From: Candidatus Gastranaerophilales bacterium | Lineage (GTDB): Bacteria; Cyanobacteriota; Vampirovibrionia; Gastranaerophilales; Gastranaerophilaceae | NCBI GenBank assembly: GCA_944323615.1 | Contig: CALUTG010000005.1 | Coordinates: 8,264-72,263, forward strand | Reading direction: 5' to 3' | Length of the DNA stretch: 64,000 bases | Shown: positions 9,305-61,155 of the stretch, in pieces | Layout of the letters: the number at the start of each line of letters is the position of its first letter | How positions within the stretch are numbered: the stretch's first letter is position 1 | The notes under the pieces: model-generated | The model's database searches: none | The model's input: only the letters and a program-made list of their open reading frames with translations | Told to the model about the DNA's origin: nothing | Translations under genes and position numbers: made by a program

Positions 9305-9624
9305 CTTTTTCTCCTTCCCATCGTATCTACCATGTAAGACGATGTTTTAAAAAAAAAGTTCCATCTCATCCCTCATTAACCATTTATCCCCACATTTACC
9401 CCTATATTTACCCCCCGATTGGACTCCCTTTTTTGGCAATGTTTTTAATTCTGAAAAACTACATAATTTAGGAGACAGTAAAGGAAAGGGAGTAAATACA
9501 GGCTTCGGCAGACAGGAAAACTCCTCTCCGGAAACTGTAAAGGTAATACTCTTTAAGACACAAAAGTAATACGGTTTGTAGAATAAAAGTAAATCTACTC
9601 CGCCTACTAACAAAGGAGGTTAAA

Positions 9625-11574
9625 ATGACGATTAGAAAACTTACTGTGGCAGCTGCAATTGCCGTTGGTATAGCAACGTGTTCGTTCAATACGGTAATGG
9701 CAGCCTGCCCATGTGACCAACGCCCTGTAGTAACCCAGGGTGCATGTCCTTGTGAAAAGGACATTCCGGAAGTTACCGGCGCAGCATGTCCTTGCGATCC
9801 GGCCCCGGAACCTTGCGGCTGTGACAAAGCCCCAAAATGTGAACCGGATCCGGTTCCTTCATGTGCACTTTGCCCGGGAGTAAAGGATCTCCAGAGAAGT
9901 AACATGAGACAGGTTTATGCGTATCCGAATGCGATTTACGGATACAACAACTTTGTAGGTACTCAAGCTGATTCTGTTTACTCTGCAGAAGGGTTTTCCG
10001 TTACAAGAGACAACTCTAAGCTCAGCTCAACAACAATGGGCACAACCGTTGCATCAGACGGTTCTATCACTGGCGCTGCAACTGACATCCCATGCCTTAA
10101 CGAAATGAGCAGACACAATGGTATTCCGATTATCAGAGATGAATCTAAAATGGACGGAAACGGCTGCCCTATTCAGATGGGTACAGCAAACTCAATTCAG
10201 GCAATTAAAAAGAGCTTAGTGCCTTTTGATTTATCCCCGTTCAATGAAATGACAGGTGCTGCAGCTAATTTACAAATGTTCCCTGACGTTCCTAACGGAT
10301 ACTGGGCATCTTGCGAAATTGATAAACTCGCTACAAATGATGTAGTAGTTGGTTATCCTGACAGACTGTTTAAGCCGTCAAGAAACATTTCCCGTGCAGA
10401 GTTTGCAACTATGTTAGTTAAAGGTTTTGACAAAGACATGTATTCTTGCCAGCCTGAAAAACTTTTCTCAGACGTACCTGCAAACCACTGGGCAAATTCA
10501 GCTATCACAGTTGCCGTACACCAAGACTTGTTAAAAGGTTATCCTGACGGTACATATAAACCTAACCATAACGTAACAAGAGTAGAAGCTTTGTGTGCAT
10601 TATCTAAAGGTGTAAAATGTCCTGAAATGGATAAATGTAAGGCACAGGAAATCCTTTCAAAATACTGTGACGGAAATACTGTTCCTGAATGGGCGCAAAT
10701 CCCTATTGCAATTGCTTTAGACAAAGGTGCTTTAAACAACTCGCCTAATCCTGATACAATTGCACCGTTCAAGGATGCAACAAGAGCGGATATTGCGGCT
10801 ATGTTACAGAATATTCGTGTAAGTGCGGGTATTGATAAAAATCCTGTAACAGCAAATAACGATTGTCCGATTTGCCCTGATAACAAACAGGCATTTGTAG
10901 AGAATGAAGAAATCGTTCAAATTCCGACATTACAGTTAGAATTCAAAGATCAGGTAACTGCAAAATCTTCTCACGTAGGTCAGAGATTTGCTGCAAAAAC
11001 ACTTGAAGACGTAACAATTAACGGTCAGTTATTCCCTTGCGGATCAAAGGTTTACGGTAAGGTTGTAGAAGTTATAAGACCTTCCGGATGTCAGAAGGGT
11101 GCTTTAAAACTTGCGTTCACAGAAATTGAAAATTGCGGATGCAGAGCAACATTACCTAGACAAATCCTTACAGCTCAGGTTGACAAATCAAATACACCTA
11201 ACATTCTGTCAAGAATTGTTACAGCACCACTTACCTGGGGTGGTTCAATGCTCGGTATCGTAGGCAGAACAACAGGCGGTATGTTAACATCATTAGGTAA
11301 CGCTTGTGAAGACGTAGCTTCCGGTACAGGTATTGCATTGGGTGAAGTATTCCAGGGTCAGTTTGCAGCTGCAGGCAGAAGCGCAATGGATGTTGTTAAA
11401 GACACCGTTAAGGCTCCTATTGACTTAACAAGAACAGCATTGTCAGGTACAATGGGCTTGTTCCAGTCAACAGGCGACGAAGTAGCTTACTTAGTTGACG
11501 CTAAGGGGTACAAAATCTCAGCTATTAACCCGAAAGAACACGTAACTATAGCTTTCGGATGCAGCGGCGAGTAA
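9625..11574 (+). CDS. secreted protein: Cys/Pro-rich N-terminal segment, three SLH domains and a C-terminal beta-rich/Gly-rich domain
   Basis: 649 aa. Signal peptide ...NTVMA. ACPC repeated three times plus further CxC/CPxC motifs. SLH repeats (FPDVPNGYWA.., FSDVPANHWA.., VPEWAQ..). GGAGG Shine-Dalgarno upstream. Confidence 0.85.
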   Translation: MTIRKLTVAAAIAVGIATCSFNTVMAACPCDQRPVVTQGACPCEKDIPEVTGAACPCDPAPEPCGCDKAPKCEPDPVPSCALCPGVKDLQRSNMRQVYAYPNAIYGYNNFVGTQADSVYSAEGFSVTRDNSKLSSTTMGTTVASDGSITGAATDIPCLNEMSRHNGIPIIRDESKMDGNGCPIQMGTANSIQAIKKSLVPFDLSPFNEMTGAAANLQMFPDVPNGYWASCEIDKLATNDVVVGYPDRLFKPSRNISRAEFATMLVKGFDKDMYSCQPEKLFSDVPANHWANSAITVAVHQDLLKGYPDGTYKPNHNVTRVEALCALSKGVKCPEMDKCKAQEILSKYCDGNTVPEWAQIPIAIALDKGALNNSPNPDTIAPFKDATRADIAAMLQNIRVSAGIDKNPVTANNDCPICPDNKQAFVENEEIVQIPTLQLEFKDQVTAKSSHVGQRFAAKTLEDVTINGQLFPCGSKVYGKVVEVIRPSGCQKGALKLAFTEIENCGCRATLPRQILTAQVDKSNTPNILSRIVTAPLTWGGSMLGIVGRTTGGMLTSLGNACEDVASGTGIALGEVFQGQFAAAGRSAMDVVKDTVKAPIDLTRTALSGTMGLFQSTGDEVAYLVDAKGYKISAINPKEHVTIAFGCSGE

Positions 11575-11577
11575 AGA

Positions 11578-11748
11578 ATGCCGTAGGCCGGTGTGAAGGA
11601 CTGAAACGCATTGTGGAAGCACAATGCGTTGGAAGTCCAAAACACTACGAAGCCGCCGTTGGGAGTGAAGCGAGAGCGGAACGACCGAACAAATCTCCGA
11701 TTTGACAGGCGGATAAGCCGCAGGCCGGTGTGAAGCCCAAAACGGCAT
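11578..11748 (+). ncRNA. candidate structured RNA or 3' UTR element, class unknown
   Basis: GC-rich island in AT-rich DNA. A 7-bp closing stem pairs ATGCCGT (11578-11584) with ACGGCAT (11742-11748). An internal 11-bp hairpin pairs AACGCATTGTG with CACAATGCGTT (11605-11630). GCCG[TC]AGGCCGGTGTGAAG is duplicated at both ends. An intrinsic terminator follows about 25 nt later. Confidence 0.35.
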
Positions 11749-11773
11749 ATTTTAATCGTTTGCTCATACTGAA

Positions 11774-11813
11774 AAGACCCCTGGCAGTAGTTTTTGCGGG
11801 GGTCTTTTTTTTA
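11774..11813 (+). terminator. intrinsic terminator
   Basis: AGACCCC...GGGGGTCT stem followed by T8. Confidence 0.85.
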
Positions 11814-11820
11814 TTTCTTT

Positions 11821-12723
11821 TTACTCAAATAAAGCTTGGATAAATTCTTTGGAGTCAAATAGTTTTAAATCTTCCATTTTTTCCCCGACACCTACAAGCT
11901 TAACCGGAAGTTTTAAATCTTTTGCAATCGCAAGAACAATTGCCCCTTTGGCTGAACCATCCAGTTTTGTTAAAGCTACAGCCGTAAGGTTAACACAGTC
12001 TTTAAAAACCTTTGCCTGAACGAGACCGTTTTGTCCGGTATTGGCATCTATTACGAGAATACTTTCTCTCAAAGCCTCAGGAGCGTTTTTATCAATAACC
12101 GTTTTTATTTTTGATAACTCTTCCATCAGGTTAAATTTATTCTGAAGCCTGCCTGCCGTATCAACAAGGATTACGTCATAGTTTTCATTTTTGGCTTTTT
12201 GGATTGCCTCATAAACAACCGAAGCAGGGTCAGCTTTATCTCTTCTTACAATATCGGCGCCTGAGCGTTTTGACCAAATATCCACCTGCTCTTCCGCTGC
12301 AGCGCGAAAAGTATCTCCGGCTGCTATTAAAACTTTTTTACCTTTTTCTTTAAAAAAGTATGCGAGCTTTCCGATTAGAGTTGTTTTGCCTGCGCCGTTT
12401 ACACCGGTTATAAAATAAATATTCAATTCATTTTCTTTATAATTAAGTTCGCTGGAGCCGGCTTCATCAAGGGTTTTGTTAAACTCATTAAGAAGAAATT
12501 CTTTAACCTGAGACGGTTTAATTTTAGACTGCCCTCTTAGTTTATCCGTTAATTCGGACGCATAATTTACCCCTAAATCGGCACTTATAAGAAGGTCTTC
12601 CATATCATCAAGGACAAATTCGGAAAATTCTTCTTCCTCTCCGACCGCATCTACAACGTTACCAACGAGTGCTTGAGCTGTTTTGGATACTGTGGATTTT
12701 AGTTTATCAAAAAAGTTAAACAT
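11821..12723 (-). CDS. ftsY: signal recognition particle receptor FtsY
   Basis: 300 aa. SRP GTPase motifs GVNGAGKTT, DTAGR, TKLD. Confidence 0.93.
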   Translation of the reverse strand: MFNFFDKLKSTVSKTAQALVGNVVDAVGEEEEFSEFVLDDMEDLLISADLGVNYASELTDKLRGQSKIKPSQVKEFLLNEFNKTLDEAGSSELNYKENELNIYFITGVNGAGKTTLIGKLAYFFKEKGKKVLIAAGDTFRAAAEEQVDIWSKRSGADIVRRDKADPASVVYEAIQKAKNENYDVILVDTAGRLQNKFNLMEELSKIKTVIDKNAPEALRESILVIDANTGQNGLVQAKVFKDCVNLTAVALTKLDGSAKGAIVLAIAKDLKLPVKLVGVGEKMEDLKLFDSKEFIQALFE

Positions 12724-12726
12724 CTT

Positions 12727-13389
12727 TTAACCCTTTAAGCCGTTTTCCAGAATTACTTTAGCTAAAATACCGTTTACAAAAGATGAAGAATCTTCTGTTG
12801 AATATTTTTTAGCAAGTTCAACCGCTTCATCCACAACGACCTTAACAGGTGCTCCTTTTGTATATAGAAGTTCGGTGATAGCGATTCTTAAGATATCTTT
12901 ATCCATTTTAACAAGTCTTGAGATATCCCAGCCGTTTGAATATTTTTGGATTTCACCATCAATTGTTTTGTGATTGTTTTTAAAAGCTTCTGCAATTTCC
13001 GTTGCATAATCTTTTACTTCGCTTTGACTTTCAAGCGTGGTAAATTCCGCTATTTCAAGCGCAAGAATTGCTTTTTCCGCTACATCAATCATTGTATCTA
13101 CTTTTGCAATCATTTCATCAGTCATCGGAATTTGAACAGGTTTGTTTTTTGCACCGAGAGGACGGGAAAGATTTGATTCATGTTCAGCTTCGTAGGTATC
13201 AAGTGATTCCTTAATATCAATTAATGAGCCGACTGTAAGTTTTAATTCTTCTGAAGCTGAATTTGAAAGAATTCTTACGGATTTCAGCATAATATCTTCA
13301 AAATCTTTTTTTGAATAATGAGTTATTTCTTTTTCAAACTGTGAAAATAATATAAGTGCTAATTCTCTTGCTGCACGTCTTGCCTGCAT
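12727..13389 (-). CDS. nusB: transcription antitermination factor NusB (long form)
   Basis: 220 aa. N-terminal RRAARELALILF and C-terminal DEAVELAKKYS...FVNGILAKV, with an internal insertion of about 70 aa relative to 130-150 aa NusB proteins. Confidence 0.85.
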   Translation of the reverse strand: MQARRAARELALILFSQFEKEITHYSKKDFEDIMLKSVRILSNSASEELKLTVGSLIDIKESLDTYEAEHESNLSRPLGAKNKPVQIPMTDEMIAKVDTMIDVAEKAILALEIAEFTTLESQSEVKDYATEIAEAFKNNHKTIDGEIQKYSNGWDISRLVKMDKDILRIAITELLYTKGAPVKVVVDEAVELAKKYSTEDSSSFVNGILAKVILENGLKG

Positions 13390-13481: not shown

Positions 13482-14669
13482 ATGAGTAAGAAGAAACGTG
13501 CAATTATAGTTGTAATAGATTCAATGGGAATCGGTGCTATGCCTGATTGCAAAGAATTCGGAGATACAGAAAAATGCAACACTTTAAAGAATGTATGTGC
13601 TTTTAATAAAGGTTTAAATTTACCTAACCTTGAAAAACTCGGGCTTGGAAATATTCAGGATTTTGAAGGGGTAAATAAGGTCTCAAATCCTATCGGGCAA
13701 TACGGGACCTTACAGGAAAAATCAAAGGGAAAAGATACAACAACAGGGCACTGGGAAATTGCAGGACTTGTAAGTGAAAAGCCGTTTTCAACTTTCCCTG
13801 ACGGATTTCCGAAAGAACTTATTGATAAGTTTATTGAAGAAACCGGCTGCGGCGGAGTTCTTGCAAATATTCCGGCAAGCGGAACCGCTATTATTGAACA
13901 ATTAAATGATGAACATCACAGAACAAAGTTCCCGATTGTTTACACGTCTGCAGACAGCGTATTCCAGATTGCGCTTGATACAGATATGATTCCGCTCGAA
14001 ACTCTTTATGACTGGTGCAAAATTGCCAGAAGGCTTCTTGATGAGGGAGATTATAATACCGCAAGAGTAATCGCAAGACCTTATAAAATAATTGACGGAA
14101 AACCTACAAGAATCTCAAAGGACAGAAGAGACTATTCTATGGCTCCTCCTAAGAAAACCGTCTTAGACAAAGTAAAAGATTCTGGAGCTAAAGTTATCGG
14201 AATCGGAAAAATTGAAGATATTTTCTCAAAAGCCGGAATAACTCATGCTATTCATACCGGTTCAAACAAAGAGGGGTTAGAACTTACTTTGCAAGCTGTT
14301 AAAGACGAACTTCCTCTTGATAAAATGATTTATCCGGGGGTAAATATAACGGATGAGGCAAGGGAAATTATCTTCACTAACCTTGTTGATACAGATATGC
14401 TGTATGGGCACAGAAATAACCCGGAAGGTTACGGAAAGGCTATTGAAGAAATTGACACTTATTTGGAAAAAATTCTTCCACTGATTACAGAAGATGACCT
14501 TCTTATAATTACGGCAGATCATGGCTGCGATCCGACGGTTGAAGGAACTGATCATACAAGAGAATATGTTCCGGTTCTATATTACTCAAAAGAAATTAAA
14601 CCGAAAGATCTGGGTCTTACACTCGGATTTGATTCCATAGCGGAAAGAATATCCGAATGGCTCTTTTAA
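13482..14669 (+). CDS. deoB: phosphopentomutase
   Basis: ORF 13470-14669, with the start moved to ATG 13482 (GGAGG at 13472-13476). Motifs VIDSMGIG, TTGHWE, ADHGCDPT. Confidence 0.9.
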   Translation: MSKKKRAIIVVIDSMGIGAMPDCKEFGDTEKCNTLKNVCAFNKGLNLPNLEKLGLGNIQDFEGVNKVSNPIGQYGTLQEKSKGKDTTTGHWEIAGLVSEKPFSTFPDGFPKELIDKFIEETGCGGVLANIPASGTAIIEQLNDEHHRTKFPIVYTSADSVFQIALDTDMIPLETLYDWCKIARRLLDEGDYNTARVIARPYKIIDGKPTRISKDRRDYSMAPPKKTVLDKVKDSGAKVIGIGKIEDIFSKAGITHAIHTGSNKEGLELTLQAVKDELPLDKMIYPGVNITDEAREIIFTNLVDTDMLYGHRNNPEGYGKAIEEIDTYLEKILPLITEDDLLIITADHGCDPTVEGTDHTREYVPVLYYSKEIKPKDLGLTLGFDSIAERISEWLF

Positions 14670-14938: not shown

Positions 14939-14959
14939 AATTTATTTAATAAAGAAGTA

Positions 14960-19072: not shown

Positions 19073-21166
19073 CTAAGTAATTATATAGTTGTAAACCTGA
19101 TTTATTACATCTTTAAAGGCATTATGATTTCCAAAGAAAACATATAATTCAGCCCTGTTTTCTCCTATCATTTGAAGAGCCGGTGTCTCCAGCGGCGGTC
19201 CGGCAGGGGTTGAACGCGCCGGGTTATAAGGATTTGAAATAGTTCCGGTCGCTCTCAATATCGGAATCAGAAGAAAATTTTTATATATCTCATATTGAGT
19301 CAGTCCTTTTGTTACAACTCCGAGATTATTTTTATTCTCATCAATAATTAACCCCCTCTGCATTGGTGCAGTATTAGCAGCAGCTTCTATTCCTCTTGTC
19401 TTAGGTAAATTTGCACGAATGTTGTAATCCGGATTGAAATTCCGCTTAATTAAGATATTCATATCTTCCGAAAATACTTCTTTGATTTTTTCAGGTAATT
19501 CAAAACACAGCTCAAGAAGGTGATTTTTCTGAGTGTTAATCCAGTTAAATTCAAATTTTATAAAGGCAGCTTCTTTGTCCAGTGTAACTGTTAAAGGAAC
19601 AATATCCCACGGACCTTCAAAATCTATTTTTAAAGAAACTCTATTCCTGCCTTTAAGTACCGCTTTTGAGCGTAAAATTTTAAATTCGGTACCTTTATCA
19701 TCCTCTCTCGGACCGTTATTATAACTGTCTCCTTCGTCAACAAAATCTATAAGTTTGACAGGTACTTCATTTATAAATATCTGCTCAGCTTTAATTTCAA
19801 GCTTGATATTAGAGTTTTCTATTGAAGTATCAGTGACTTTTAAGTCTGTTAAACCTATAATCGGCATAAGAGCTTCAACTTCTTCAGGAGGAATATTTTC
19901 TACTTGAGCGGTATATGTTCCGATTTCTGTATAATCTTCTGTCACAGGAATACGCTGAGTATCTGTGAGTAAGTTTTTCTCAAAACCTTTAGCAGAAGCT
20001 ATTTTTTCATATCCTTCCTGAGGCCTTGCAGTTTTTACTTCAATTACACCTGAAAAATAATTGTCAGAAAGGTTTAAAATCTTATTTTCTTCCTGCCATT
20101 GTTCATCAATAATGGTTTGAGCGATTTGAAGAACTTTTTTGTATCGAATAATATTTTCGCTGTGCGTATCGTCTGTTGAGCAGCCGCAAATTCCGTCATG
20201 AGCCTGATTTTGAAGTAAAAGCTTGTATGCATATTCAATGATTTTTTCGTATTTTTCTTCGGACCTTCGGAATTTGATAAACTTAGAAGCAAGGTCAAGC
20301 TTATGAGTACATTCGATATTCATTCTTTTTAAATCAAGTCTTGAAGAATGTGTGCCCGGGAGTATAAATGTTTTTGAATTATCCCTCAATTCATCATCAA
20401 ACCTGAATTTTTCAAAATTTGACTGAACTCTTTTAAAGTATTCAAAAGGTGATGAAAGTTTAATATTGTAATCTTCTTTTAAAATTTCGTTAACTGCAAG
20501 AATCTGGTCATTAATGTCTTTTTCAACTCCCAAATGGTCTGCGCCTATTGGGAAAAGCAGAAAGTTGCCTGATTTTTCTGATATTAAATCCAGATTCTTT
20601 TTGAGAATCTCAGCTTTTTTTTCAATATCACAATTTAATGAAAAAACATCCTGAAAATAGCCCCTCACAAGGTTAACCGTATCCATTCCGCACCACTTGA
20701 AATCAGCCGGAAAATCTCCGCAGCCCCGCCAGACAATACATTTATCTATTCCGAAATCTCTGAGAATGTCCGGAACATTTTTGCTGTGACCGAAAGTATC
20801 CGGAAGGTATCCGATAAAATCAGTGCAGCCAAAATCCAATGCTGTTTTTAATCCTATTTCCAAGTTTTTGGAAAAACAAGTTTTATCGGTTAAAAATTCA
20901 TCCACAAGACAATAAAAAGGTCCGATAAATATTTTTTTTGAGAAAATAAGACTCCTTACGAGTTCTTCTTTTTCCGGACGAATCTCCAAGTAATCTTGCA
21001 GGGCGGAAACCTGTCCGTCAAAATAAAAACAAGGAATTTTATTAGTTGCAAGAAGCTCCAGAATATTATCAAAAACACGTAAAAGACGCATTCTGAATAT
21101 TTCAAACTCTCTGTACCATTCCCTGTCCCAATGTGTATGCAGATAGGCTATAACTTGTTTCCTCAT
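19073..21166 (-). CDS. glycoside hydrolase family 38 (alpha-mannosidase / mannosylglycerate hydrolase-like)
   Basis: ORF 19073-21202, with the start moved to ATG 21166. The GH38 N-domain signatures LHTHWDREWY and GYLPDTFGHS are present. Confidence 0.8.
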   Translation of the reverse strand: MRKQVIAYLHTHWDREWYREFEIFRMRLLRVFDNILELLATNKIPCFYFDGQVSALQDYLEIRPEKEELVRSLIFSKKIFIGPFYCLVDEFLTDKTCFSKNLEIGLKTALDFGCTDFIGYLPDTFGHSKNVPDILRDFGIDKCIVWRGCGDFPADFKWCGMDTVNLVRGYFQDVFSLNCDIEKKAEILKKNLDLISEKSGNFLLFPIGADHLGVEKDINDQILAVNEILKEDYNIKLSSPFEYFKRVQSNFEKFRFDDELRDNSKTFILPGTHSSRLDLKRMNIECTHKLDLASKFIKFRRSEEKYEKIIEYAYKLLLQNQAHDGICGCSTDDTHSENIIRYKKVLQIAQTIIDEQWQEENKILNLSDNYFSGVIEVKTARPQEGYEKIASAKGFEKNLLTDTQRIPVTEDYTEIGTYTAQVENIPPEEVEALMPIIGLTDLKVTDTSIENSNIKLEIKAEQIFINEVPVKLIDFVDEGDSYNNGPREDDKGTEFKILRSKAVLKGRNRVSLKIDFEGPWDIVPLTVTLDKEAAFIKFEFNWINTQKNHLLELCFELPEKIKEVFSEDMNILIKRNFNPDYNIRANLPKTRGIEAAANTAPMQRGLIIDENKNNLGVVTKGLTQYEIYKNFLLIPILRATGTISNPYNPARSTPAGPPLETPALQMIGENRAELYVFFGNHNAFKDVINQVYNYIIT

Positions 21167-30097: not shown

Positions 30098-31549
30098 TTA
30101 ATCCTTGATTTCTTTATAAGTAAGATTCGGATGTCTGGCCGCCAGAGTTTCATCAACTTTTTTGATAGGAGTTTTCTGCGGTGATTTTAAGACTTCTTCC
30201 GGATTAGATTTTATTTCTTCCGCAATTTTCAGCATTACATTAATAAAGTTATCAAGAACCTCTTTTGATTCTGATTCTGTCGGTTCAATCATAATCGCTT
30301 CATGTACAATGAGCGGGAAATAAACCGTAGGCGGATGAATATTGTCATCCATTAATCGTTTTGCAATGCCTAAAGTTGAAACACCTTCGTGGTGCTGCTT
30401 TTCTCCTGATAGGACAAACTCGTGCATGCAAGGTTCGTCATAAGGAAGCTCATATACACCTTTTAGTTTTTCTTTAATATAGTTAGCGTTCAACACAGCA
30501 TCAGCACTTGCAAGTTTGAGATTATCACCCATCATAAGAATATATGCGTATGCTCTTACAAGGATGCCGAAGTTTCCGTAAAAACTTCTAACTTTGCCGA
30601 TTGAGTGCTTAATATTATAGTTTCTGTAATATTTAGCTCCGTCAAATTCAATTACAGGGGACGGCAAACAATCTTTTAATTTTTCTATTACGCCGACAGG
30701 CCCTGCACCGGGACCACCGCCTCCGTGAGGAGTAGCAAATGTTTTGTGAAGGTTAAGGTGAACCACATCAAACCCCATTAAAGCAGGGTTTGTCCAGCCC
30801 ATAACAGCGTTAAAGTTTGCACCGTCATAATATAATAAAGAACCGTTATCGTGCATTAATTTGGAAATTTCAAGAACTTTTTCTTCAAAAATTCCCAGAG
30901 TATTAGGGTTGGTCATCATAATAGCGGCAATATTTTCATCAAGAAGAGACTTAAGGGCATCTATATCGACTTGCCCTCTTTCGTTTGACTTAACTTCAAT
31001 AATCTCAAATCCGCACATTTTGGCGCTCGCAGGGTTTGTGCCGTGGGCCGAATCGGGGATGATAACTTTAGTTCTGTTAGTTTCGCCTTTAACTTCAAAA
31101 TACTTTTTAATAATCATCATGCCGGTAAGTTCTCCGTGTGCTCCGGCTGCCGGCTGGAGCGTAACCGCGTCCATTCCGGTTATGTATTTTAATTTTTCCT
31201 GAAGATTATACATTAATTCAAGTGCACCCTGGGAATCTTCGTCGGACTGAAGCGGGTGAAGATTAGCAAATCCCTCCAGAGAAGCTAACAGTTCATTGAC
31301 TTTCGGGTTATATTTCATCGTGCATGAACCCAGAGGATAGAATCCCTTTTCTATGCAGAAATTTCTGTCCGAAAGAGCTTTATAATGTCTTAGAACTTCA
31401 AGTTCGCTTAATTGCGGAAGTCCTATAGAACCTTCTCTTAGTAATTCTTTCGGGATGCAGCTCTTCGGTTTTATTTCACTATTTACCCCTACATTTACCC
31501 CTATCCCTATGCCGTCAGCGCCGTTTGATTTTTCAAATATTGTCTTCAT
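30098..31549 (-). CDS. gcvPB: glycine dehydrogenase (aminomethyl-transferring) subunit 2
   Basis: 483 aa. PLGSCTMKYNP, and the PLP-Lys context HLNLHKTF. Confidence 0.93.
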   Translation of the reverse strand: MKTIFEKSNGADGIGIGVNVGVNSEIKPKSCIPKELLREGSIGLPQLSELEVLRHYKALSDRNFCIEKGFYPLGSCTMKYNPKVNELLASLEGFANLHPLQSDEDSQGALELMYNLQEKLKYITGMDAVTLQPAAGAHGELTGMMIIKKYFEVKGETNRTKVIIPDSAHGTNPASAKMCGFEIIEVKSNERGQVDIDALKSLLDENIAAIMMTNPNTLGIFEEKVLEISKLMHDNGSLLYYDGANFNAVMGWTNPALMGFDVVHLNLHKTFATPHGGGGPGAGPVGVIEKLKDCLPSPVIEFDGAKYYRNYNIKHSIGKVRSFYGNFGILVRAYAYILMMGDNLKLASADAVLNANYIKEKLKGVYELPYDEPCMHEFVLSGEKQHHEGVSTLGIAKRLMDDNIHPPTVYFPLIVHEAIMIEPTESESKEVLDNFINVMLKIAEEIKSNPEEVLKSPQKTPIKKVDETLAARHPNLTYKEIKD

Positions 31550-40249: not shown

Positions 40250-40566
40250 TGCTACGCAAATAGAAAAAGGGTAAAACTATATAAATGTCATCCCGAACTT
40301 GTTTCGGGATCTTACCGGAAATCAAGTAAAGTGCCAAACTGATAAGATGCTGAAGGGGTAAATATAGTTAGTAGGACAAGTGTCAAACTGTTCCGCCTGA
40401 TGTAAAAAGTTCAGCATGACGAAACAAATTATCATGGACAGCAGTGGAATTTGTTTCCGGAGCTTACGGAATAATAGTCAACCCAACTTACTACCAAACA
40501 GAACACACAATTAATACAGGTGCAATTGGCAGAAAAGCCTGTAGTAACTAAAAAGGAGAAAATGAT
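40250..40566 (+). repeat. 317-nt rpsH-rplF spacer made of nested short hairpin repeats
   Basis: GCTACGCAAATAG directly after the stop. Hairpin GTCATCCCGAACTTGTTTCGGGATC. A split hairpin GATGCTGAA...[about 55 nt including GGGGTAAAT]...AGTTCAGCATGAC. Confidence 0.75.
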
Positions 40567-41125: not shown

Positions 41126-41250
41126 TGCGAACGCTACGTAGGGGTAAATATCAGATTATTCCTGAACTTGTTTCAGGATCTCCTGCGGGAGCAAGTGCGA
41201 ACGCTACGTAGGGGTAAATATCAGATTATTCCTGAACTTGTTTCAGGATC
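41126..41250 (+). repeat. two identical 55-bp direct repeats (period 70 bp) in the rplF-rplR spacer
   Basis: TGCGAACGCTACGTAGGGGTAAATATCAGATTATTCCTGAACTTGTTTCAGGATC at 41126-41180 and again at 41196-41250. Each contains the CTACGTAG palindrome, GGGGTAAAT and the CCTGAA-CTTGT-TTCAGG hairpin. Confidence 0.95.
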
Positions 41251-41415
41251 CCATGCGTAAGCCGGTGAGAAGACCGAAAAGACTTGCAGAAGTGTAAGTC
41301 TTTGGAGGACGAAACACCACAATACCGCCGGCGGAAGAGCCGGAAGAATAATACAAGCCCATATAAACTCTTGAGTGGTATCAAGCAAGTTTGGGTAAAA
41401 GAAAGGAAAAACCAA

Positions 41416-41806: not shown

Positions 41807-41860
41807 CAGAGCGGGATGTGACTTTAAGTCACATCCCGCTCTGTTGTTTTATTTATTTTT
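41807..41860 (+). terminator. strong intrinsic terminator after rplR
   Basis: Near-perfect hairpin of about 15 bp, CAGAGCGGGATGTGAC...GTCACATCCCGCTCTG, followed by a T-rich tract. Confidence 0.9.
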
Positions 41861-41889
41861 TTGATAAAATACTTTTGAGGGCATTGATT

Positions 41890-43959
41890 ATGAATAGAAA
41901 AAAATTATATCTTCCGTTATTGGTTTTGTGTGCCGTGTTATCAATTAACGGAGCAGAAGCTAAGATGACTAAAGAGGCACACGCTCTTTACCAGCAGGCT
42001 TGTGCTTATGAGTATAAAAGCGATTATGTAAATGCTATTAAGATTATTAAAAAAGCATTAGAGATTAATGGCGATGATGCCATGCTTTATACTAAAATAG
42101 CCGGATTGTATTCAGATATCGGGGAATATCAGGATTCACTCGGGGCTTATAAAAAAGCTATTAAACTAAGACCGAATGATGCATTTATTTATATAAGCAT
42201 GGGGAATATTCTGCAAACTCTCGGGGATTATGAAAATGCTTATAATGCCTTCAACCAAGCCCAGCAGATTTACCCCGAGTATAAGTATAACTATTTAAAT
42301 CTTGCGAATGTCGAGTATTTCAGAAAAAACTATAAAAATGCGATTGAATATTATAATACATTCTTGAGCGCTTATCCTGAGCATATGGAAGCCAGTGAGA
42401 ACCTTGCAAATGTTTACTATTTGTCTGATCAGCCGGAAAAAGCTTGTGATATTTATTCAAATATTTATAAACAGTATCCGTCGGCATTTAAAGAATTTAA
42501 AAACTACGGTATGGTTTTATTTGATACAAAACAGTATCAGGCAGCTGCAGAAATGCTTGAAAAAGCTCTTGAAAACGATACAGAGGATGAAGCTATTCTT
42601 GCAAAACTTGCTCTGTCTTATCAGAACATAGATGAAAATGAGAAAGCTCTAAAAACTTTTAATAAAGTTTTTGAGATTAATCCGAAACTTACTGCTCTTA
42701 GGTTCGATTATGCTAATCTTCTCGGTAATATGGGCAGAAATGACGAAGCTATTGAACAATACAAACAGTATTTGGCTGCGTTTCCGGAGGATACAAATGC
42801 ATATTTAAATTTAGGCCTCGTGTATAAAAAACTTGATAACAACGAGCTGGCACTTTTTAACTTCGAAAAATCTTATTCCAAAGATTCTTCAAATGTGGAG
42901 ACAAAAAAAGAATTAGCATTGAGTTATCATAAAAAAGAAGATTATTCTAACGCTTTGAAATTTTATAATTTTGCATTAAAAACAGAACCCGACAATCCGG
43001 AACTGCTTGCAAATAAAGCTTTAACCCTTCATGCTATGCATAATTATGTAGCCGCGATAGAAATTTATAAAGAACTTTTAGAGAAACAGCCTAATGACAG
43101 GATTAAAGAAAACCTGACGGCAGCATCTATTGCCTATGGCTATGATTTGTACGACAAGCAGGATTATGGTCAGGCCATTTTGTATTTTGAAGATGCGATA
43201 GAACTTAATAACAAGGAAGCTTCGGCATATTTTGGATACGCAAGAGCAAATGCCAAAATGGGCTGTACTGATATTGCTCTCGCTGCTTACGAAAAAGCAG
43301 TTTCTTTAAACCCTTCTAATACTGCTTATGTGAGTGAACTCAATACCTTTAGAGAAGAATACAAAGATGTTATAAAAAGATCTATTACGCAGACAGCAGA
43401 GCTGCCTGAACCTGAGTTATCAATTATCACACCGGTTGTGACGGAGGCTGTTGAAGAAAATACTCCGGAGTCGCAGATTGACAACGAGCAGGCTGCAACC
43501 TATGATACGCTTATCCAGAAAGGTGATGATGCTTACAGACAGCAAAAATACGAAGAAGCTGTTGATTACTTTACCAAGGCTGTAGTGTTTGTTCCGTCTG
43601 ATAAAGTTACAATGCTGAAAATTGCTAATATCTATAAACTTATGGGGAATAACGCTAAAGCTATAAGTTTTTATGACAAAATAATCACACTCGATAAAGA
43701 TAATACGGATGCATATTTCAATAAAGGTTTGGTCTATGCTAACCAGAAGAACTATGATGAAAGCATAAAATGCTTTGAAAAGGTTATCAGCCTTTCTCCT
43801 GAATATCCTTATGCTTATTACTCAATCGGTATGGCTTATGAACTCAAAAACCAGCCGGATAAAGCCCTTGAGTATTATTACTTATACACCGGAATTGAGA
43901 CTGACGAGAAAATGCTTAACCTTGTAAACAAGAGAATTAAGAATTTGGAAAATAAATAA
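41890..43959 (+). CDS. secreted tetratricopeptide-repeat protein
   Basis: ORF 41818-43959, with the start moved to ATG 41890 (signal peptide MNRKKLYLPLLVLCAVLSINGAEA). Many TPR units (A..Y.KA..L.P). Confidence 0.85.
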   Translation: MNRKKLYLPLLVLCAVLSINGAEAKMTKEAHALYQQACAYEYKSDYVNAIKIIKKALEINGDDAMLYTKIAGLYSDIGEYQDSLGAYKKAIKLRPNDAFIYISMGNILQTLGDYENAYNAFNQAQQIYPEYKYNYLNLANVEYFRKNYKNAIEYYNTFLSAYPEHMEASENLANVYYLSDQPEKACDIYSNIYKQYPSAFKEFKNYGMVLFDTKQYQAAAEMLEKALENDTEDEAILAKLALSYQNIDENEKALKTFNKVFEINPKLTALRFDYANLLGNMGRNDEAIEQYKQYLAAFPEDTNAYLNLGLVYKKLDNNELALFNFEKSYSKDSSNVETKKELALSYHKKEDYSNALKFYNFALKTEPDNPELLANKALTLHAMHNYVAAIEIYKELLEKQPNDRIKENLTAASIAYGYDLYDKQDYGQAILYFEDAIELNNKEASAYFGYARANAKMGCTDIALAAYEKAVSLNPSNTAYVSELNTFREEYKDVIKRSITQTAELPEPELSIITPVVTEAVEENTPESQIDNEQAATYDTLIQKGDDAYRQQKYEEAVDYFTKAVVFVPSDKVTMLKIANIYKLMGNNAKAISFYDKIITLDKDNTDAYFNKGLVYANQKNYDESIKCFEKVISLSPEYPYAYYSIGMAYELKNQPDKALEYYYLYTGIETDEKMLNLVNKRIKNLENK

Positions 43960-55216: not shown

Positions 55217-56002
55217 ATGATTAACAACTATAACATTTTGTTGAATATGGTAAATGACTATAAGTCCTTAAAAGAGATAGAGGCAATAGGTCTTGGCGGT
55301 TCTTCAACCGCTAATACTGCTGATAATAAATCTGATTATGATATTTATATTTACGGAAAATCAGAGCCTCCTGTTGAAGCGAGGCGGCAAATTGCAGAAA
55401 AGTACGCGGATAAATTAGAAATAGATAACCATAATTTTGAAACCGGCGATGTCTTTTGCTTGAGGGATTCAGGAAAACCAATTGATATAATGTACAGGCA
55501 TCCGGATTTTATTGAAAATAATATTAAATGGGTCTGGGAAGAGCATAATGCTTCTTTAGGCTACACAACCTGCTTTATAGATAATATTAAAAAAACGGAA
55601 ATTTTTTATGATAAAAACGGATGGCTTAAAAAGATGCAGGAAAGGGTTGATACTCCTTATCCTGAAAAACTTGCAGAGAATATAATTAAGAAAAATTTCA
55701 ATTATCTAAAAGATGCAATGTTTTCTTTCTATGACCAGCTTGTCTCTGCCGTGGAAAGAGATGATTTTGTCAGTGTAAATCACAGATGTGCGGCTTTTCT
55801 TGCAAGTTATTTTGACGCTGTTTTTGCTAAAAATCGTATCCTTAATCCGGGAGAGAAAAAGCTTGTGCCGTTTGCGTTAAAAAATTGTAAGATTCTTCCT
55901 GAAGGTTTTGAATCGGATGTAAAAACTCTGTCTGTAGGAGAAGTTCCTAAACGTGTTCCGGCTGCTGCAAGAATGGTGGAAAATCTTAGAAAAATACTTT
56001 AA
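55217..56002 (+). CDS. nucleotidyltransferase-domain protein
   Basis: 261 aa. GLGGSS...SDYDIYIY matches the G-S...D-x-D pattern of the NTase fold. Confidence 0.6.
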   Translation: MINNYNILLNMVNDYKSLKEIEAIGLGGSSTANTADNKSDYDIYIYGKSEPPVEARRQIAEKYADKLEIDNHNFETGDVFCLRDSGKPIDIMYRHPDFIENNIKWVWEEHNASLGYTTCFIDNIKKTEIFYDKNGWLKKMQERVDTPYPEKLAENIIKKNFNYLKDAMFSFYDQLVSAVERDDFVSVNHRCAAFLASYFDAVFAKNRILNPGEKKLVPFALKNCKILPEGFESDVKTLSVGEVPKRVPAAARMVENLRKIL

Positions 56003-56070
56003 AGGGGTAAATGGGGTAAATTAGGCAATTGTAAAATGCTTCCCTTTATTTACCCCGGGCATTATTTCTT

Positions 56071-56316
56071 TTGTAAAGATTCATTTACCCCTATTTTTGT
56101 CGCTCATTTTGGGAGTTTATTTCCAATTGTAAAGATTCATTTACCCCTATTTTTGTTGCTCATTTTGGGAGTTTATTTCCAATTGTAAAGATTCATTTAC
56201 CCCTATTTTTGTTGCTCATTTTGGGAGTTTATTTCTAGTTGTAAAGATTCATTTACCCCAAATTTCAGAATACATTTGGAGATATTATTTCCAAATGTAA
56301 AGATTCATTTACCCCC
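56071..56316. repeat. tandem array: three near-identical 56-bp units, one diverged unit and one partial unit
   Basis: Units lie at 56071-56126, 56127-56182, 56183-56238, 56239-56295 and 56296-56316. Each starts (T)TGTAAAGATTCATTTACCCC. A degenerate copy at 56027-56056 and two plus-strand GGGGTAAAT at 56004-56021 precede the array. Confidence 0.95.
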
Positions 56317-56385
56317 GGCAAAAAAATCTTTTCTTTTGTTTTGAATAGTGTATAATAAAACAAAGGAAAACTGAGAATAGTTTTT

Positions 56386-57249: not shown

Positions 57250-57262
57250 AAGATACAATAGA

Positions 57263-57949
57263 TTATTTGTTTTTGTATTTTTCCCATAAATCCGGACGTC
57301 TTTTCTTAGTGCGTTCGATTTTTTGTTCCAGTCTGAATTCTTCAATTAATTTGTGATTTCCGTTTAAAAGAACTTCCGGAACTTTTAAGCCTCGATATTC
57401 TCTCGGTTTTGTGTACTGAGGATATTCTAATAATCCGTCTGAAAAGCTGTCATCATGAGCAGATTCAATTTTCCCCAGGGTTCCTTCAATTTTTCTGGAT
57501 ACACTGTCTATAATACAAAGAGCAGGAAGTTCTCCCCCTGTAAGTACAAAATCTCCTATAGAAATTTCTCTTGGCTTAATAATTTCACGGATTCTTTCAT
57601 CAAAACCTTCATAATGCCCGCATAGAATGATTATCTGCTCATACTTTGAAAGTTCGTTTGAAACTTTATCAGTAAATGGTTCTCCCTGTGGAGTCATCAT
57701 AAGAGTAATTGTGTTATTGAGTTTTTCCATATCTTCGTATGCTTCTACATAGGGCTGCGGAGCTAAAACCATGCCTGCGCCGCCTCCGTAGGGAGTATCA
57801 TCAACTTTTTTATGTTTGTCATGCGAGTAGTCTCTTGGGTTAATTGTATTAACTTCAATAATCCCGCCTTCTGATGCTCGTTTCATTATACTAAAGTCCA
57901 TATGGGACTGTATAAGCTCTGGAAATAGGGTTAATACATCAAATCTCAT
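57263..57949 (-). CDS. trmD: tRNA (guanine37-N1)-methyltransferase
   Basis: 228 aa. MRFDVLTLFPE start, and GHYEGFDERI. Confidence 0.95.
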   Translation of the reverse strand: MRFDVLTLFPELIQSHMDFSIMKRASEGGIIEVNTINPRDYSHDKHKKVDDTPYGGGAGMVLAPQPYVEAYEDMEKLNNTITLMMTPQGEPFTDKVSNELSKYEQIIILCGHYEGFDERIREIIKPREISIGDFVLTGGELPALCIIDSVSRKIEGTLGKIESAHDDSFSDGLLEYPQYTKPREYRGLKVPEVLLNGNHKLIEEFRLEQKIERTKKRRPDLWEKYKNK

Positions 57950-58458
57950 TGGAGCAGCCCCTCAAGGTTGTTAATCTGGATTTTACGGTTTTTTATATCA
58001 ACCGAAAGAACGATTGCTTTCACAAAAGGAACAAGACAAATATTTTTTGAGAGCGTTTTAACTGACAAAAGGTCGCTCGCTCCATTGTTAGAAACTCCTA
58101 CGACGGCTCCGACTATCTTATCACCGTCATAAACATCAAGTCCGACAAGTTCATCAATCAAGAACTCATCTTCTTCCAAAAATTCTCTTGCAGAATCTTG
58201 CGGTACAAAAAGAAGTTTACCTTTGTATTCCAGGATATCATTTAAACTGTTAATATCTTTAAACTTTATAATTGCACATTTTGGAGTAAACCGAATATTC
58301 TCTATCAAAAGAGTTTTATATCCATCTTGAGTTTGCACAAAAACTTCTTTGAGTTTAGACAAAAACTCTTCCCTGTTTTTTGAATACCCAAGTTTAGCCT
58401 CACCGCGAACGCCATGGAAGTTAAGAATTTTTCCTACAGAAATAAAGTTATTCTTCAT
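57946..58458 (-). CDS. rimM: 16S rRNA processing protein RimM
   Basis: ORF 57946-58665, with the start moved to ATG 58458 (ISVGKILNFHGVRGEAKL). It overlaps trmD by 4 nt. Confidence 0.88.
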   Translation of the reverse strand: MKNNFISVGKILNFHGVRGEAKLGYSKNREEFLSKLKEVFVQTQDGYKTLLIENIRFTPKCAIIKFKDINSLNDILEYKGKLLFVPQDSAREFLEEDEFLIDELVGLDVYDGDKIVGAVVGVSNNGASDLLSVKTLSKNICLVPFVKAIVLSVDIKNRKIQINNLEGLLQ

Positions 58459-58699
58459 CTTCTTTCTTCTTAGGTTTTCTTCCGCGTTTAGGCTTTTCTT
58501 CTTCCGTAGTTTCTTCAGCCGCAGCAGGAACCGGGATCTCTTCTGTCGGTTCTGTTTTAGCCTCCGGAGCTTTCTCCTGTTTTTCGTGTTTAGCAACCAT
58601 ATAATCGGCAGGTTTGTCAGCTCGGTCTTCATTCCATCTTTCAAGTCCGAGCTGTGCACGAACAAGCTTAATACCTACGTGGACCCGCCATTCATCCAT
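58448..58699 (-). CDS. 83-aa ORF that continues the upstream zinc-ribbon protein in the same frame after TGA-AAA
   Basis: MDEWRVHVGIKLVRAQLGLERW... then an acidic/Lys-rich tail ending KPKRGRKPKKKEDEE. No Shine-Dalgarno. See the finding for this locus. Confidence 0.45.
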   Translation of the reverse strand: MDEWRVHVGIKLVRAQLGLERWNEDRADKPADYMVAKHEKQEKAPEAKTEPTEEIPVPAAAEETTEEEKPKRGRKPKKKEDEE

Positions 58700-58702
58700 T
58701 TT

Positions 58703-59401
58703 TCACTGTGTTGCAATAATTTTGTGGCAGCCAATCGGCGGCAGCGGAAGTAATGGTTCGTATAAACTCTTGATTGCCATTAGCTGATCCGGTGAAATAG
58801 CCAGCTTGCGTTTAGGGAACGGAAGTTTAGGGAGCATCATCTTCTGACGTACCAGATTAATTCCGAAGAACACTTTTTGAGGTTCAATCCCTAATTTTGC
58901 TCCGATTACTTCATGCGCATCCGGATTAGGAAGCGGAAGCATGGCTTTGTACAATACTTCTATTTGTTCTAATTGTTCTTTGCTTATTAATAATGGTTTT
59001 GCAGCTTTTTGAGGTCTAGGACGTTTGTTTTGATTGCGTTTTTGCTGGAAACCGCCTTTAGAACCTCCGCTAGCGTAATTATTTCTGAAACCTCTGTTTC
59101 CGTCCTGTCTTCTCTGGAAATTATTATTGCGGTTGTTATCTCTTCTTTGATATCCTCCGCCTTGCTGTCCGCCTCTGTTATCACGCGAGTAGTTACTTTT
59201 GTAACCGCCTTGCTGAGGTCTGTCATAACTTCTAGGCTTAGGGTCGGCAGAATATGAGCTATAAGAACTATAACTCTGAAGGGGTTTCTCCTCTGGAGAT
59301 TCGTTTCCTTTGTCTGCATAAAGACAATTCGGACAGATTACTCGTTTGGGGTTCTTTGTTTCAAACTCAGCACCACACTTAATGCACTTGTTTACATACA
59401 T
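58703..59401 (-). CDS. zinc-ribbon protein with a long RGG/QGG/N-rich low-complexity region and an internal repeat
   Basis: 232 aa. CIKCGAEF...ICPNC zinc ribbon, a region of about 90 aa rich in G/R/Q/N, then repeat 1 and the first half of repeat 2. First gene of the rimM-trmD operon. Confidence 0.7.
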   Translation of the reverse strand: MYVNKCIKCGAEFETKNPKRVICPNCLYADKGNESPEEKPLQSYSSYSSYSADPKPRSYDRPQQGGYKSNYSRDNRGGQQGGGYQRRDNNRNNNFQRRQDGNRGFRNNYASGGSKGGFQQKRNQNKRPRPQKAAKPLLISKEQLEQIEVLYKAMLPLPNPDAHEVIGAKLGIEPQKVFFGINLVRQKMMLPKLPFPKRKLAISPDQLMAIKSLYEPLLPLPPIGCHKIIATQ

Positions 59402-59517
59402 AATAAAAGCCTCTTAACCACAATAAAAAATTTCACTAAGTCTTAAATATCCTATCAAATAAAGTAATAATATGAGATTTAATCAAAATTAACGGTTAAA
59501 TATAACCGAACATGTAT

Positions 59518-59545
59518 ATTATAATACAATTTTGAAATTTATCAA
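59518..59545 (-). promoter_or_regulatory. sigma-70 promoter candidate (TTGATA-16-TATAAT) for the zinc-ribbon-rimM-trmD operon
   Basis: On the minus strand, TTGATA is the complement of 59540-59545 and TATAAT is the complement of 59518-59523. Confidence 0.5.
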
Positions 59546-59610
59546 GGGGGTGAATATAACTTATCTGGATATAATGCCCTTTAGTTTATATAAAAATAAT
59601 ATGGAATTTA

Positions 59611-60876
59611 CTAACTTTTGTCTTTCAAATATCTATTATAGGCTGCCTGAGCTATGGAATTGGCTGAACTCTGTGACATATCTCCAATACAAACCTCACA
59701 TAACCTCATGAGACCCGAACCGCCACTTGTAAATTCTCCGAGAACAGTATAGCCAAAATCTATCAAAGTCCCGCTGGCATCATACACAGAATGAAGCTTA
59801 TCAACCTGTCCATTTTTGTTTAGCACATTTTGAGTTAATCTGTATCCTAGATATTCTCCGGTTTGCTCATTGTAGACTTTTTGTATATACTGAGTTCCAA
59901 GATCATCTGTAGGAGCTGCATCTCCCATAGCCTCTACAATAATATTCAGCTTTAAATCCTGAAGAGCTGATGTATATTCAAAATCCAGATACTTTCCTTT
60001 ATAATAGGCATAATCTTTTTGGCAAATGGAAATATCTCGGGCATCCAAACAACTTGAATACCCTGATAAGCTGGCGCTTTTATTTTCTCCTCCACTACCT
60101 ACTCCTCCGGTGTTTTCACTCACTTCTCCGGTGCTTTCATCCTCTTCTGGAGGGGTTGGTTCGGCTTCTTCTTTTTTTTCTATTGGTTTCACTTCAAAAT
60201 TCTTTAAATCATTTGGAAGGGATGAATCTATATTAGCATCAGCAATTTGAATATCTTCTTTTCTCCAGTTCTTTTGTTTTTCCAAATACCATTTTCCTAC
60301 TGGATCCGCGGCTACTACCAATCCCTCTACATTTACCATAACTTTGAACCTGTCAGGTTTTTTACAATTATCTGAATACAAACAATTATTGCCATTTTTT
60401 CCGTTTACATCAAAATATATATCTGTCTGGTATGATGAATCAGCAATATCACTTGTTACAAAGTATTGTGTTCCATTTGGTATAACAAAAGAAGGTTTAA
60501 ATTTTGAATCCGAATAACTTGAGTATGAAGACAAACAATTTATTTCTCCTACAGCATTCATGCTTTTTGCCAGTAGTTCGCATAATTTGGCGGAGTTTCC
60601 TCCGACAGTTTCATTTTTTGTTAAATTTATCTTTGCGATGTTATATAAAGGTATTGTTCTATAATCAATATTTTCACCTTTATTACGAGGCGGATAAATT
60701 GTTTCATTGGATGATATTTCTCTTAATGCTGTTAGGATAGCATTGTAATTACTTATATACATTGCCTTAATAGGATCAGGTTTATATTTATTAACTAAAG
60801 GTAAAACAATGGCAGCTAAAACCCCGATTACTCCCAAACAGACTAAAACTTCTGCTAATGTATAGGCTTTTTTCAT
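59611..60876 (-). CDS. type IV pilin / pseudopilin-like protein with a large C-terminal domain
   Basis: ORF 59611-60963, with the start moved to ATG 60876 (AAGGAG Shine-Dalgarno). MKKAYTLAEVLVCLGVIGVLAAIVLP is a class III signal-like N-terminus with Glu at +5. About 390 aa follow, including an acidic E/P/T/G linker. Confidence 0.75.
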   Translation of the reverse strand: MKKAYTLAEVLVCLGVIGVLAAIVLPLVNKYKPDPIKAMYISNYNAILTALREISSNETIYPPRNKGENIDYRTIPLYNIAKINLTKNETVGGNSAKLCELLAKSMNAVGEINCLSSYSSYSDSKFKPSFVIPNGTQYFVTSDIADSSYQTDIYFDVNGKNGNNCLYSDNCKKPDRFKVMVNVEGLVVAADPVGKWYLEKQKNWRKEDIQIADANIDSSLPNDLKNFEVKPIEKKEEAEPTPPEEDESTGEVSENTGGVGSGGENKSASLSGYSSCLDARDISICQKDYAYYKGKYLDFEYTSALQDLKLNIIVEAMGDAAPTDDLGTQYIQKVYNEQTGEYLGYRLTQNVLNKNGQVDKLHSVYDASGTLIDFGYTVLGEFTSGGSGLMRLCEVCIGDMSQSSANSIAQAAYNRYLKDKS

Positions 60877-60904
60877 ACTTGAAGCTCCTTTTTTTACTAA
60901 TAAA

Positions 60905-60936
60905 CCCACCCCTGCAACATAATTACTATTATGTTG
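60905..60936 (-). repeat. AT hairpin plus CAGGGGTGGG tail, copy proximal to the pilin-like gene
   Basis: The minus strand reads CAACATAATAGTAATTATGTTG + CAGGGGTGGG. Confidence 0.8.
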
Positions 60937-61116
60937 TACTTTGCCAAGTATATCATACAACAACTGCTTTGTACAGTTCTAAACAATTTGTTCGGCAGGT
61001 CGGGTATATTTATCCCTCAAACACGCTCCCAGCTTTACCCCCTTCGCCTCCCGCTATCGTTTCGTGATAAATACACCCTCCGCCTCACCATAAGCTGAAA
61101 GTGTTATTTCTAATAC

Positions 61117-61155
61117 ATTTACCCCACCCCTGCAACATAATAGTAATTGTGTTGC
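61117..61155 (-). repeat. AT hairpin plus CAGGGGTGGGGTAAAT tail, distal copy
   Basis: The minus strand reads GCAACACAATTACTATTATGTTGC + AGGGGTGGGGTAAAT. Confidence 0.8.

Follow-up and report, generated by a model that had tools for sequence, protein, structure and literature searches.

DNA words by which bacteria mark their own DNA have, to our knowledge, been established experimentally only in two proteobacterial families, as the uptake signal sequence (USS) and the DNA uptake sequence (DUS), and the status of the cyanobacterial HIP1 (highly iterated palindrome 1) is debated. The Haemophilus USS has a 9-bp core, AAGTGCGGT, and the Neisseria DUS spans 10-12 bp; HIP1 (GCGATCGC) is a palindromic octamer that is common in genes and tied to the methylases DmtA and DmtC. 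The short tandemly repeated repetitive (STRR) sequences of heterocystous cyanobacteria are made of short units with G-runs, set head to tail in spacers and often just downstream of genes, and we know of no STRR heptamers that occur as solo copies inside genes. Recent work proposes that HIP1 serves Cyanobacteria in transformation or as an uptake signal (bioRxiv 10.1101/2024.09.10.611283; 10.64898/2026.06.24.733823). Here, we describe an asymmetric 9-mer, GGGGTAAAT, that is strongly over-represented in a 64,000-nucleotide stretch (the window) of chromosomal DNA from Candidatus Gastranaerophilales (Melainabacteria), a gut relative of the Cyanobacteria; the stretch has a G+C content of ~36%. We tentatively propose, by resemblance to these systems, that the word may work as an uptake or self-recognition signal, a reading that we place first while holding it to be short of probable.

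A first-pass annotation made from the window's letters had listed 19 exact copies of GGGGTAAAT and estimated that chance would supply about one or fewer. All 19 coordinates are exact matches, and a twentieth copy that had been overlooked lies at 42268-42276 on the minus strand, antisense inside a gene. These 20 copies on both strands compare with 0.48 expected from dinucleotide-preserving shuffles (shuffle maximum 3) and 0.50 from a 3rd-order Markov model; GGGGTAAAT ranks first among the over-represented 9-mers of the window, and its enrichment over chance is ~40-fold in the window's lineage and in some relatives. One-mismatch neighbours are only mildly enriched (28 against ~15 expected, ~1.8-fold), so it is the exact word that is special. 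Spacers hold 14 of the 20 copies, yet open reading frames (ORFs) of at least 100 aa cover ~89% of the window, and the word is ~10-18 times denser in spacers than in genes. The setting is ordinary chromosomal: housekeeping genes are found across the window, including malQ, dapF, hisS, a sigma-70-family gene, genes for SLH-domain proteins, ftsY, nusB, deoB, gcvPB, the genes for ribosomal proteins S8, L6 and L18, and kdsB, lpxK, fba, ruvC, polA, trmD, rimM and purQ/purS. A gathering-threshold Rfam search and a tRNA scan of the window returned no RNA family match and no tRNA, and the window holds no copy of HIP1. Full-text literature searches returned no description of GGGGTAAAT, of comparable repeats or of uptake sequences in Melainabacteria, and the string matches were primers. 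Hyper-abundant genomic words are an already known kind of feature, from which GGGGTAAAT is set apart by its sequence, its asymmetry, its arrays, its positional bias and its host clade.

Copies inside genes show at which level the word is kept. The first-pass annotation had read every coding copy as GGG-GTA-AAT, giving Gly-Val-Asn (G-V-N), and this holds for five of the six: one in ftsY, in sense orientation (12565-12573, minus strand; LGVNY), two in deoB (13668-13676 and 14337-14345, plus strand; EGVNK and PGVNI), and a tandem pair with a 12-bp period, in frame in the variable N-terminal segment of gcvPB (31481-31501, minus strand; GVNVGVN). The sixth, at 42268, is antisense to the TPR-protein gene at 41818-43959 (plus strand) and is read ATT-TAC-CCC. 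The window has nine G-V-N tripeptides; GGGGTAAAT encodes five of them, where codon usage predicts 2.9%, and the other four match the 3.9 expected from amino-acid frequencies. Because the G-V-N excess is entirely the GGGGTAAAT encoding, the signal lies in DNA and not in protein. At both deoB sites and in ftsY, the orthologous peptides vary (EGIEK, KGINK, PEVNI and others), and in codon alignments the word is built by single substitutions: at the first deoB site, GGG GTA AAT in the window corresponds to GGA GTA AAT in locus L120 and to GGC ATT GAA in L118 (loci from other genomes are numbered with the prefix L), and the second site carries the word in L142, L118, L143 and L144 and reads GGG ATA AAT in L141 and L120. 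Judged from these alignments, coding copies arise by point substitution. The ftsY copy is intact in L141, L142 and L120 despite differing neighbouring synonymous sites, and is absent from L118 and L119. In L142, where third-codon-position identity to the window is 57-66%, all three coding copies are intact against an expectation of ~0.16-0.24 for each, and the codons that flank them have changed synonymously. Since they survive amid this synonymous divergence, we conclude that coding copies are retained at synonymous sites. The earlier proposal that the word is kept at the DNA level, in the manner of USS, DUS and HIP1, is therefore supported by the encoding of G-V-N, the point-substitution origin and the retention of copies.

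The first-pass annotation had further taken a single fixed reading frame as a special signal, and this part does not stand. About 80% of coding clusters are in sense orientation, mostly read GGG-GTA-AAT; a third sense frame is impossible because TAA falls in frame, and the antisense frames require rare codons. Related genomes also use the frame xGG-GGT-AAA-T and all three antisense frames. A codon-usage null computed over 218,850 codons predicts 1.41 and 1.26 copies in the two sense frames and 0.28, 0.29 and 0.62 in the antisense frames; among clusters not used for locus selection, observed were 21 and 6 in sense and 5, 2 and 3 in antisense, that is, 27 against 2.67 (~10-fold) and 10 against 1.19 (~8-fold). 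In spacers between co-directional genes, sense and antisense clusters stand at 33:15, or 2.2:1, within the 1.5-2.35:1 predicted from strand composition. With codon usage and strand composition corrected for, the two strands show about the same enrichment, and this symmetry points to a drive that acts on double-stranded DNA and disfavours a function in RNA. The orientation of the word also flips with adjacent genes, within ~1 kb between the minus-strand copy at 12565 and the plus-strand copy at 13668 and repeatedly across the window.

These numbers bear on the idea that the word acts in RNA, as a 3'-untranslated-region or intercistronic element that is bound by an RNA-binding protein or pairs with the anti-Shine-Dalgarno sequence. 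The sense majority of coding clusters would suit such a role, as would the sense-only accumulation at stop codons described below and the position of the word 3-4 nt before the deoB start in one lineage (L161, L167, L168, L184), where it could be a ribosome-binding site; a Shine-Dalgarno role is plausible in that lineage only. The near-equal enrichment of antisense coding copies, the agreement of intergenic strand ratios with composition, the lack of an Rfam match and the absence of a fixed distance to start codons all argue otherwise, and we regard an RNA-level word as quite unlikely.

The anatomy of the repeat is that of a small independent unit. Across 75 solo copies in low-GC loci, information content outside GGGGTAAAT is near zero except for a purine at -1 and R-W-A at +1 to +3 (R, purine; W, A or T), and as only these flanking positions are conserved we take the full unit to be the 12-mer R-GGGGTAAAT-R-W-A. 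With nothing conserved beyond it, the copies are independent of one another and do not belong to a single mobile element. Many clusters are arrays in which the unit recurs head to tail every 12 bp; the spacer triplet is constant inside an array and differs among arrays, indicating local slippage of the 12-bp unit. The tandem spacings noted earlier are correct: copies lie 12 nt apart at both 9382-9414 and 31481-31501, and 9 nt apart at 56004-56021. Larger units multiply as well: of the six minus-strand copies at 56048-56321, five head a tandem array of 56-bp units (56071-56315; 89% matches over 4.4 units), whose (motif-X)n-motif layout is expected from slippage between two flanking copies, and a 70-bp tandem duplication in the L6-L18 spacer (41126-41257 within 41126-41265, plus strand) carries in each unit one copy (41141, 41211) followed by a hairpin. 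Arrays of 53-57 bp also occur in L100, L117, L071 and L073, with unrelated unit sequences and neighbouring genes, and no shared neighbour gene was found beside them. Copies thus multiply by slippage of both 12-bp and 56-70-bp segments, and array copy number differs between close relatives.

The same data contradict an assignment to known repeats of other kinds, namely remnants of a miniature inverted-repeat transposable element (MITE) or repetitive extragenic palindrome (REP), an array of clustered regularly interspaced short palindromic repeats (CRISPR), plasmid-type iterons, or a polar signal such as Chi or the FtsK orienting polar sequences (KOPS), and we give this assignment hardly any weight. 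The 56-bp array has a superficial look of repeat-spacer architecture, and Chi and KOPS are themselves G-rich. However, the 75 solo copies lack the extension beyond the 12-mer that a REP or MITE would share; the supposed spacers of the 56-bp array are near-identical (its units are 89% identical) and no cas gene lies among the neighbours; the genes next to arrays are unrelated across genomes and include no rep gene; and orientation flips within ~1 kb, unlike the replichore-wide polarity of Chi or KOPS.

The word extends beyond the window and was found in many Gastranaerophilales genomes. Gut and rumen assemblies supply deoB orthologues with 84-100% identity, and those with a name are labelled Candidatus Gastranaerophilales. 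A scan for the tandem GGGGTAAATNNNGGGGTAAAT in one genome per GTDB species gave at least 117 loci, and among the matches listed most were metagenome-assembled genomes (MAGs) of Gastranaerophilales, Melainabacteria or 'Vampirovibrio'; loci found in this way, which are biased toward motif-rich genomes, hold ~0.85-1 additional clusters per 10 kb; the corresponding figure for unrelated high-GC loci is 0.05. In a motif-blind sample of 80 metagenome loci anchored on deoB (854 kb in total, deoB identity 66-86%), GGGGTAAAT occurs 25 times against 5.4 expected and GGGGTAAAG 18 times against 3.1, with the control variants GGGGCAAAT (6 against 5.9) and GGGGTGAAT (3 against 3.0) at expectation. The enrichment of GGGGTAAAT in this sample is 4.6-fold, lower than in the motif-selected loci, and the sampled DNA of several lineages has no copy. 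In the deoB tree, the loci rich in the word fall close to one another: the window (5 per 21 kb), L142 (4), L120 (4), L143 (4) and L118 (3). The trait is strong yet lineage-specific, and patchy within Gastranaerophilales.

Such patchiness would be expected of an accessory driver that is gained and lost, and thus of a word with no function for the organism: a by-product of biased mutation, repair or short-patch conversion, linked for example to an accessory methyltransferase or repair enzyme and multiplied by minisatellite-type slippage, in effect a selfish word. The fast turnover of copies by single substitutions, the variable array number among close relatives and the presence of other short tandem repeats in the genome, such as (ACTAGTG)6.6, fit this picture. 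Retention in L142, by contrast, goes beyond the neutral expectation, and arrays that reach 4-5 units in frame within proteins should carry a cost. A contiguous asymmetric target of 9-12 bp also exceeds those typical of methyltransferases and very-short-patch repair. A functionless word of this sort strikes us as unlikely, if somewhat less so than a role in RNA.

Several further observations concern the spread of the word. In the more distant Gastranaerophilales-like locus L166, GGGGTAAAG (including tandems) and GGGGTAAAA are far commoner than GGGGTAAAT, at 19346-19379 and four other sites, and GGGGTAAAG may be a dialect of the word there. A second candidate dialect, GCGGAGAAG in L118 and L143, was rejected, as it encodes the ABC-signature LSGGE in uvrA and is a protein-level signal. 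Carriage by phages was likewise rejected: the 19 viral contigs with the tandem all hold local 12-nt duplications without dispersed copies. Low-GC contigs with arrays and extra copies (L034, L046, L053, L056, L087, L115 and others) are filed under Muribaculaceae, Bifidobacteriaceae, Clostridia and other taxa, and some of these look like mis-binned Melainabacteria. In the high-GC Proteobacteria L006, L043, L031 and L081, GGGGTAAATNNNGGGGTAAAT lies directly upstream of ORFs whose N-termini resemble those of P4-type integrases; the double word may there be an integrase arm-type site, with no apparent relation to the phenomenon in Melainabacteria.

Copies are not placed evenly with respect to gene ends. 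Among 61 clusters with a same-strand long-ORF stop no more than 200 nt upstream, 19 start between -1 and +8 nt from the stop, and six more clusters supply the stop themselves, from the TAA within the word. The stop is TAG in 13 of the 19 stop-adjacent clusters, against a baseline of 23%, typically as TAG-GGG-TAA-AT. The motif-blind set repeats this pattern, at 56004 in the window, 15911 in L120, 521 and 3551 in L143 and 1237 in L159. Antisense clusters have a preference of their own, with 7 of 15 ending 49-72 nt upstream of a start codon and abutting promoter-like sequences. This pattern at stops and promoters is the main support for a different explanation, in which arrays are the binding sites of a chromosomal protein specific to the lineage, which would bind DNA head to tail with each monomer on one 12-bp unit and mark gene boundaries, for example as a polar roadblock, a terminator, an insulator or a nucleoid-organising factor. 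The 12-bp period of the arrays suits such a protein, as do the sense-only accumulation at stops, the concentration of antisense clusters next to promoter-like sites, and an array at the sigma-factor gene of the window that sits just upstream of a -35-like element. On the other side, solo copies are ~10-fold enriched inside genes, on both strands and by point substitution, which is not what one would look for in a boundary element and would be harmful for a terminator; 15 clusters are flanked by divergent genes, so that read-through does not reach them; and we found no candidate protein and no consistent hairpin or T-run after arrays. We consider a boundary-marking protein possible though doubtful. 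A narrower version, in which the 12-mer is a protein-read form of gene punctuation, with sense arrays at stops (often TAG-GGG-TAA) and antisense arrays upstream of promoters making up a polar, factor-dependent transcription boundary, seems to us rather improbable, and we know of no described bacterial element of that kind, no literature search aimed at one having been made.

Other roles suggested by these positions were set aside. Consensus scans for promoters and terminators around intergenic copies gave nothing consistent, and copies lie at widely varying distances from start codons; a tandem-stop role was set aside because no phase is preferred after stops; and most arrays have fewer than four G-runs, which speaks against G-quadruplexes.

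The reading that we favour is a recognition word similar to those used in DNA uptake. We propose that a sequence-specific process would keep writing R-GGGGTAAAT-R-W-A into the double-stranded DNA of the lineage. New copies arise by point substitution wherever they are tolerated, in spacers and in coding loops able to read G-V-N; slippage, either of the 12-bp unit or of 56-70-bp segments with a copy at each end, multiplies them locally, and they are kept at synonymous positions. We infer that a DNA-handling machine specific to the lineage may recognise the word and favour DNA carrying it, most likely through preferential binding and uptake of 'self' DNA in type IV pilus-dependent natural transformation. 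Under such a drive the word would accumulate, and individual copies would need no function. We rank this proposal first because exactness, substitution origin, retention, strand symmetry, intergenic excess and sharing among relatives are properties of USS, DUS and HIP1. Type IV pilus genes have been reported for Gastranaerophilales (PMC5877343), and the window itself encodes a type IV pilin-like gene (59611-60963, minus strand), in a region with pilin-like proteins at 57.2-61.0 kb; the copy in the leader of that gene, to which the first-pass annotation had drawn attention, counts as no evidence for uptake.

The comparison can be made point by point. Like GGGGTAAAT, USS and DUS are asymmetric words, exact over 9-12 bp and strongly over-represented, and the bases that flank them are weakly conserved. 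They occur in either orientation and are denser in spacers; in genes they use frames that the protein can accommodate and originate by point substitution, and relatives share them, possibly in different dialects. HIP1 resembles GGGGTAAAT in being hyper-abundant, in belonging to the same broad phylum, in its propagation by substitution, in its variation among lineages and in a function that was long obscure (10.1101/2024.09.10.611283; 10.64898/2026.06.24.733823; PMC5861425). Unlike HIP1, GGGGTAAAT is asymmetric, 9-12 bp long, mostly intergenic and arranged in tandem arrays, and unlike STRR sequences it has a 12-bp unit and is common as solo copies inside genes, where tandem copies occur as well.

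Several observations weigh against an uptake function. Head-to-tail 12-bp arrays, present even inside genes, are foreign to USS and DUS, and the patchiness within the order (4.6-fold enrichment over the 854 kb) includes zero copies in 21 kb of L119, L147 and L213, which lie near motif-rich lineages in the deoB tree. USS and DUS reach a density of roughly 1 copy per kb; that of GGGGTAAAT is lower, at ~0.3. Inverted terminator pairs, a feature of USS and DUS, are nearly absent, with one pair (56004-56056) at which no terminator-like structure was predicted. The stop-codon hot spot exists in sense orientation only, with no antisense cluster near a stop, and a strand-symmetric drive does not predict such a pattern. 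None of three features just named, the patchy distribution, the 12-mer arrays and the stop-codon hot spot, had been foreseen in the first-pass annotation. A further difference is that USS and DUS belong to proteobacterial hosts, and the host of GGGGTAAAT is a Melainabacterium, from an uncultured lineage; the word is a candidate member of the uptake-sequence family.

If the uptake-like proposal is right, this distinct and asymmetric word would predict self-recognising natural competence in an uncultured gut lineage of the non-photosynthetic clade that is sister to the Cyanobacteria. The repeat (GGGGTAAATGTA)n is a concrete probe for fishing out the protein that recognises it, and the word could serve as a handle for DNA design in future genetic work and as a simple signature for metagenome binning and contamination detection. 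The sense-only hot spot at stops and the in-frame arrays are unusual, and could indicate a different mechanism.

The remaining copies in the window illustrate the range of contexts. On the minus strand at 9382-9414, a head-to-tail 12-bp array is made up of exact copies at 9394 and 9406 and the variant GGGGATAAAT (9382-9391), whose presence we confirm. The array ends 18 nt upstream of a TGGAAC-N16-CGTC site (9338-9363, minus strand) that precedes the sigma-70-family gene at 8375-9304 (minus strand). It is identical in L141, and in L142 only the first copy is retained and the promoter-like site is conserved. This site, which resembles promoters of the extracytoplasmic-function (ECF) sigma type, is conserved in both L141 and L142, and the stretch between it and the array has been replaced. 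At 56004-56021 (plus strand), two abutting copies with a 9-bp period begin 1 nt past the TAA stop of a nucleotidyltransferase gene (55217-56002), and the minus-strand copy at 56048 forms an inverted pair with them. Between purQ and the pilin-like gene, the minus strand of 61008-61125 holds an exact copy (61117-61125) and two one-mismatch copies, GGGGTAAAG at 61033 and GGGATAAAT at 61008. A 32-nt hairpin followed by GGGGTGGG, at 60905-60936 and 61123-61154, flanks the start of the pilin-like gene. A solo copy (40355-40363, plus strand) lies in the S8-L6 spacer, which is unusually long at 317 bp.

Further repeats and gene arrangements accompany the word. The S8, L6 and L18 genes in the segment 39854-43959 stand unusually far apart, with spacers of 317 and 177 bp full of small repeats, and the gene that comes after L18 encodes a 713-aa TPR protein; in the typical bacterial spc-operon order, the S5 gene would be expected there. 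A small hairpin, TCCYGAACTTGTTTCRGGA, occurs three times in these ribosomal-protein spacers (40291-40309, 41160-41178 and 41230-41248), beside copies of GGGGTAAAT. TGCTACGCACGTAGGTAAGG, a 20-mer made of a short palindrome and then GTAGGTAAGG, stands directly after stop codons at 40250, 48190 and 48296 of the window, and at the orthologous site past the fba stop in L013 (4782-4814) three tandem GGGGTAAAT units take its place. In L100, an MmeI-family restriction-modification gene (849-3839, minus strand) ends at the TAA of a GGGGTAAAT copy and adjoins a 57-bp motif array. The window's heptamer array, (ACTAGTG)6.6 at 4869-4915, is bracketed by the hairpin-forming repeat TCTYCCTCCCTTATGAGGGAGG (4830-4865 and 4920-4955) and resembles cyanobacterial STRR sequences, and L142 has the heptamer-like words TGAATAGTG and GTGACTAG. 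Another intergenic repeat family, GCCGYAGGCCGGTGTGAAG, is found at 11580-11611, 11717-11748 and 41254-41285.

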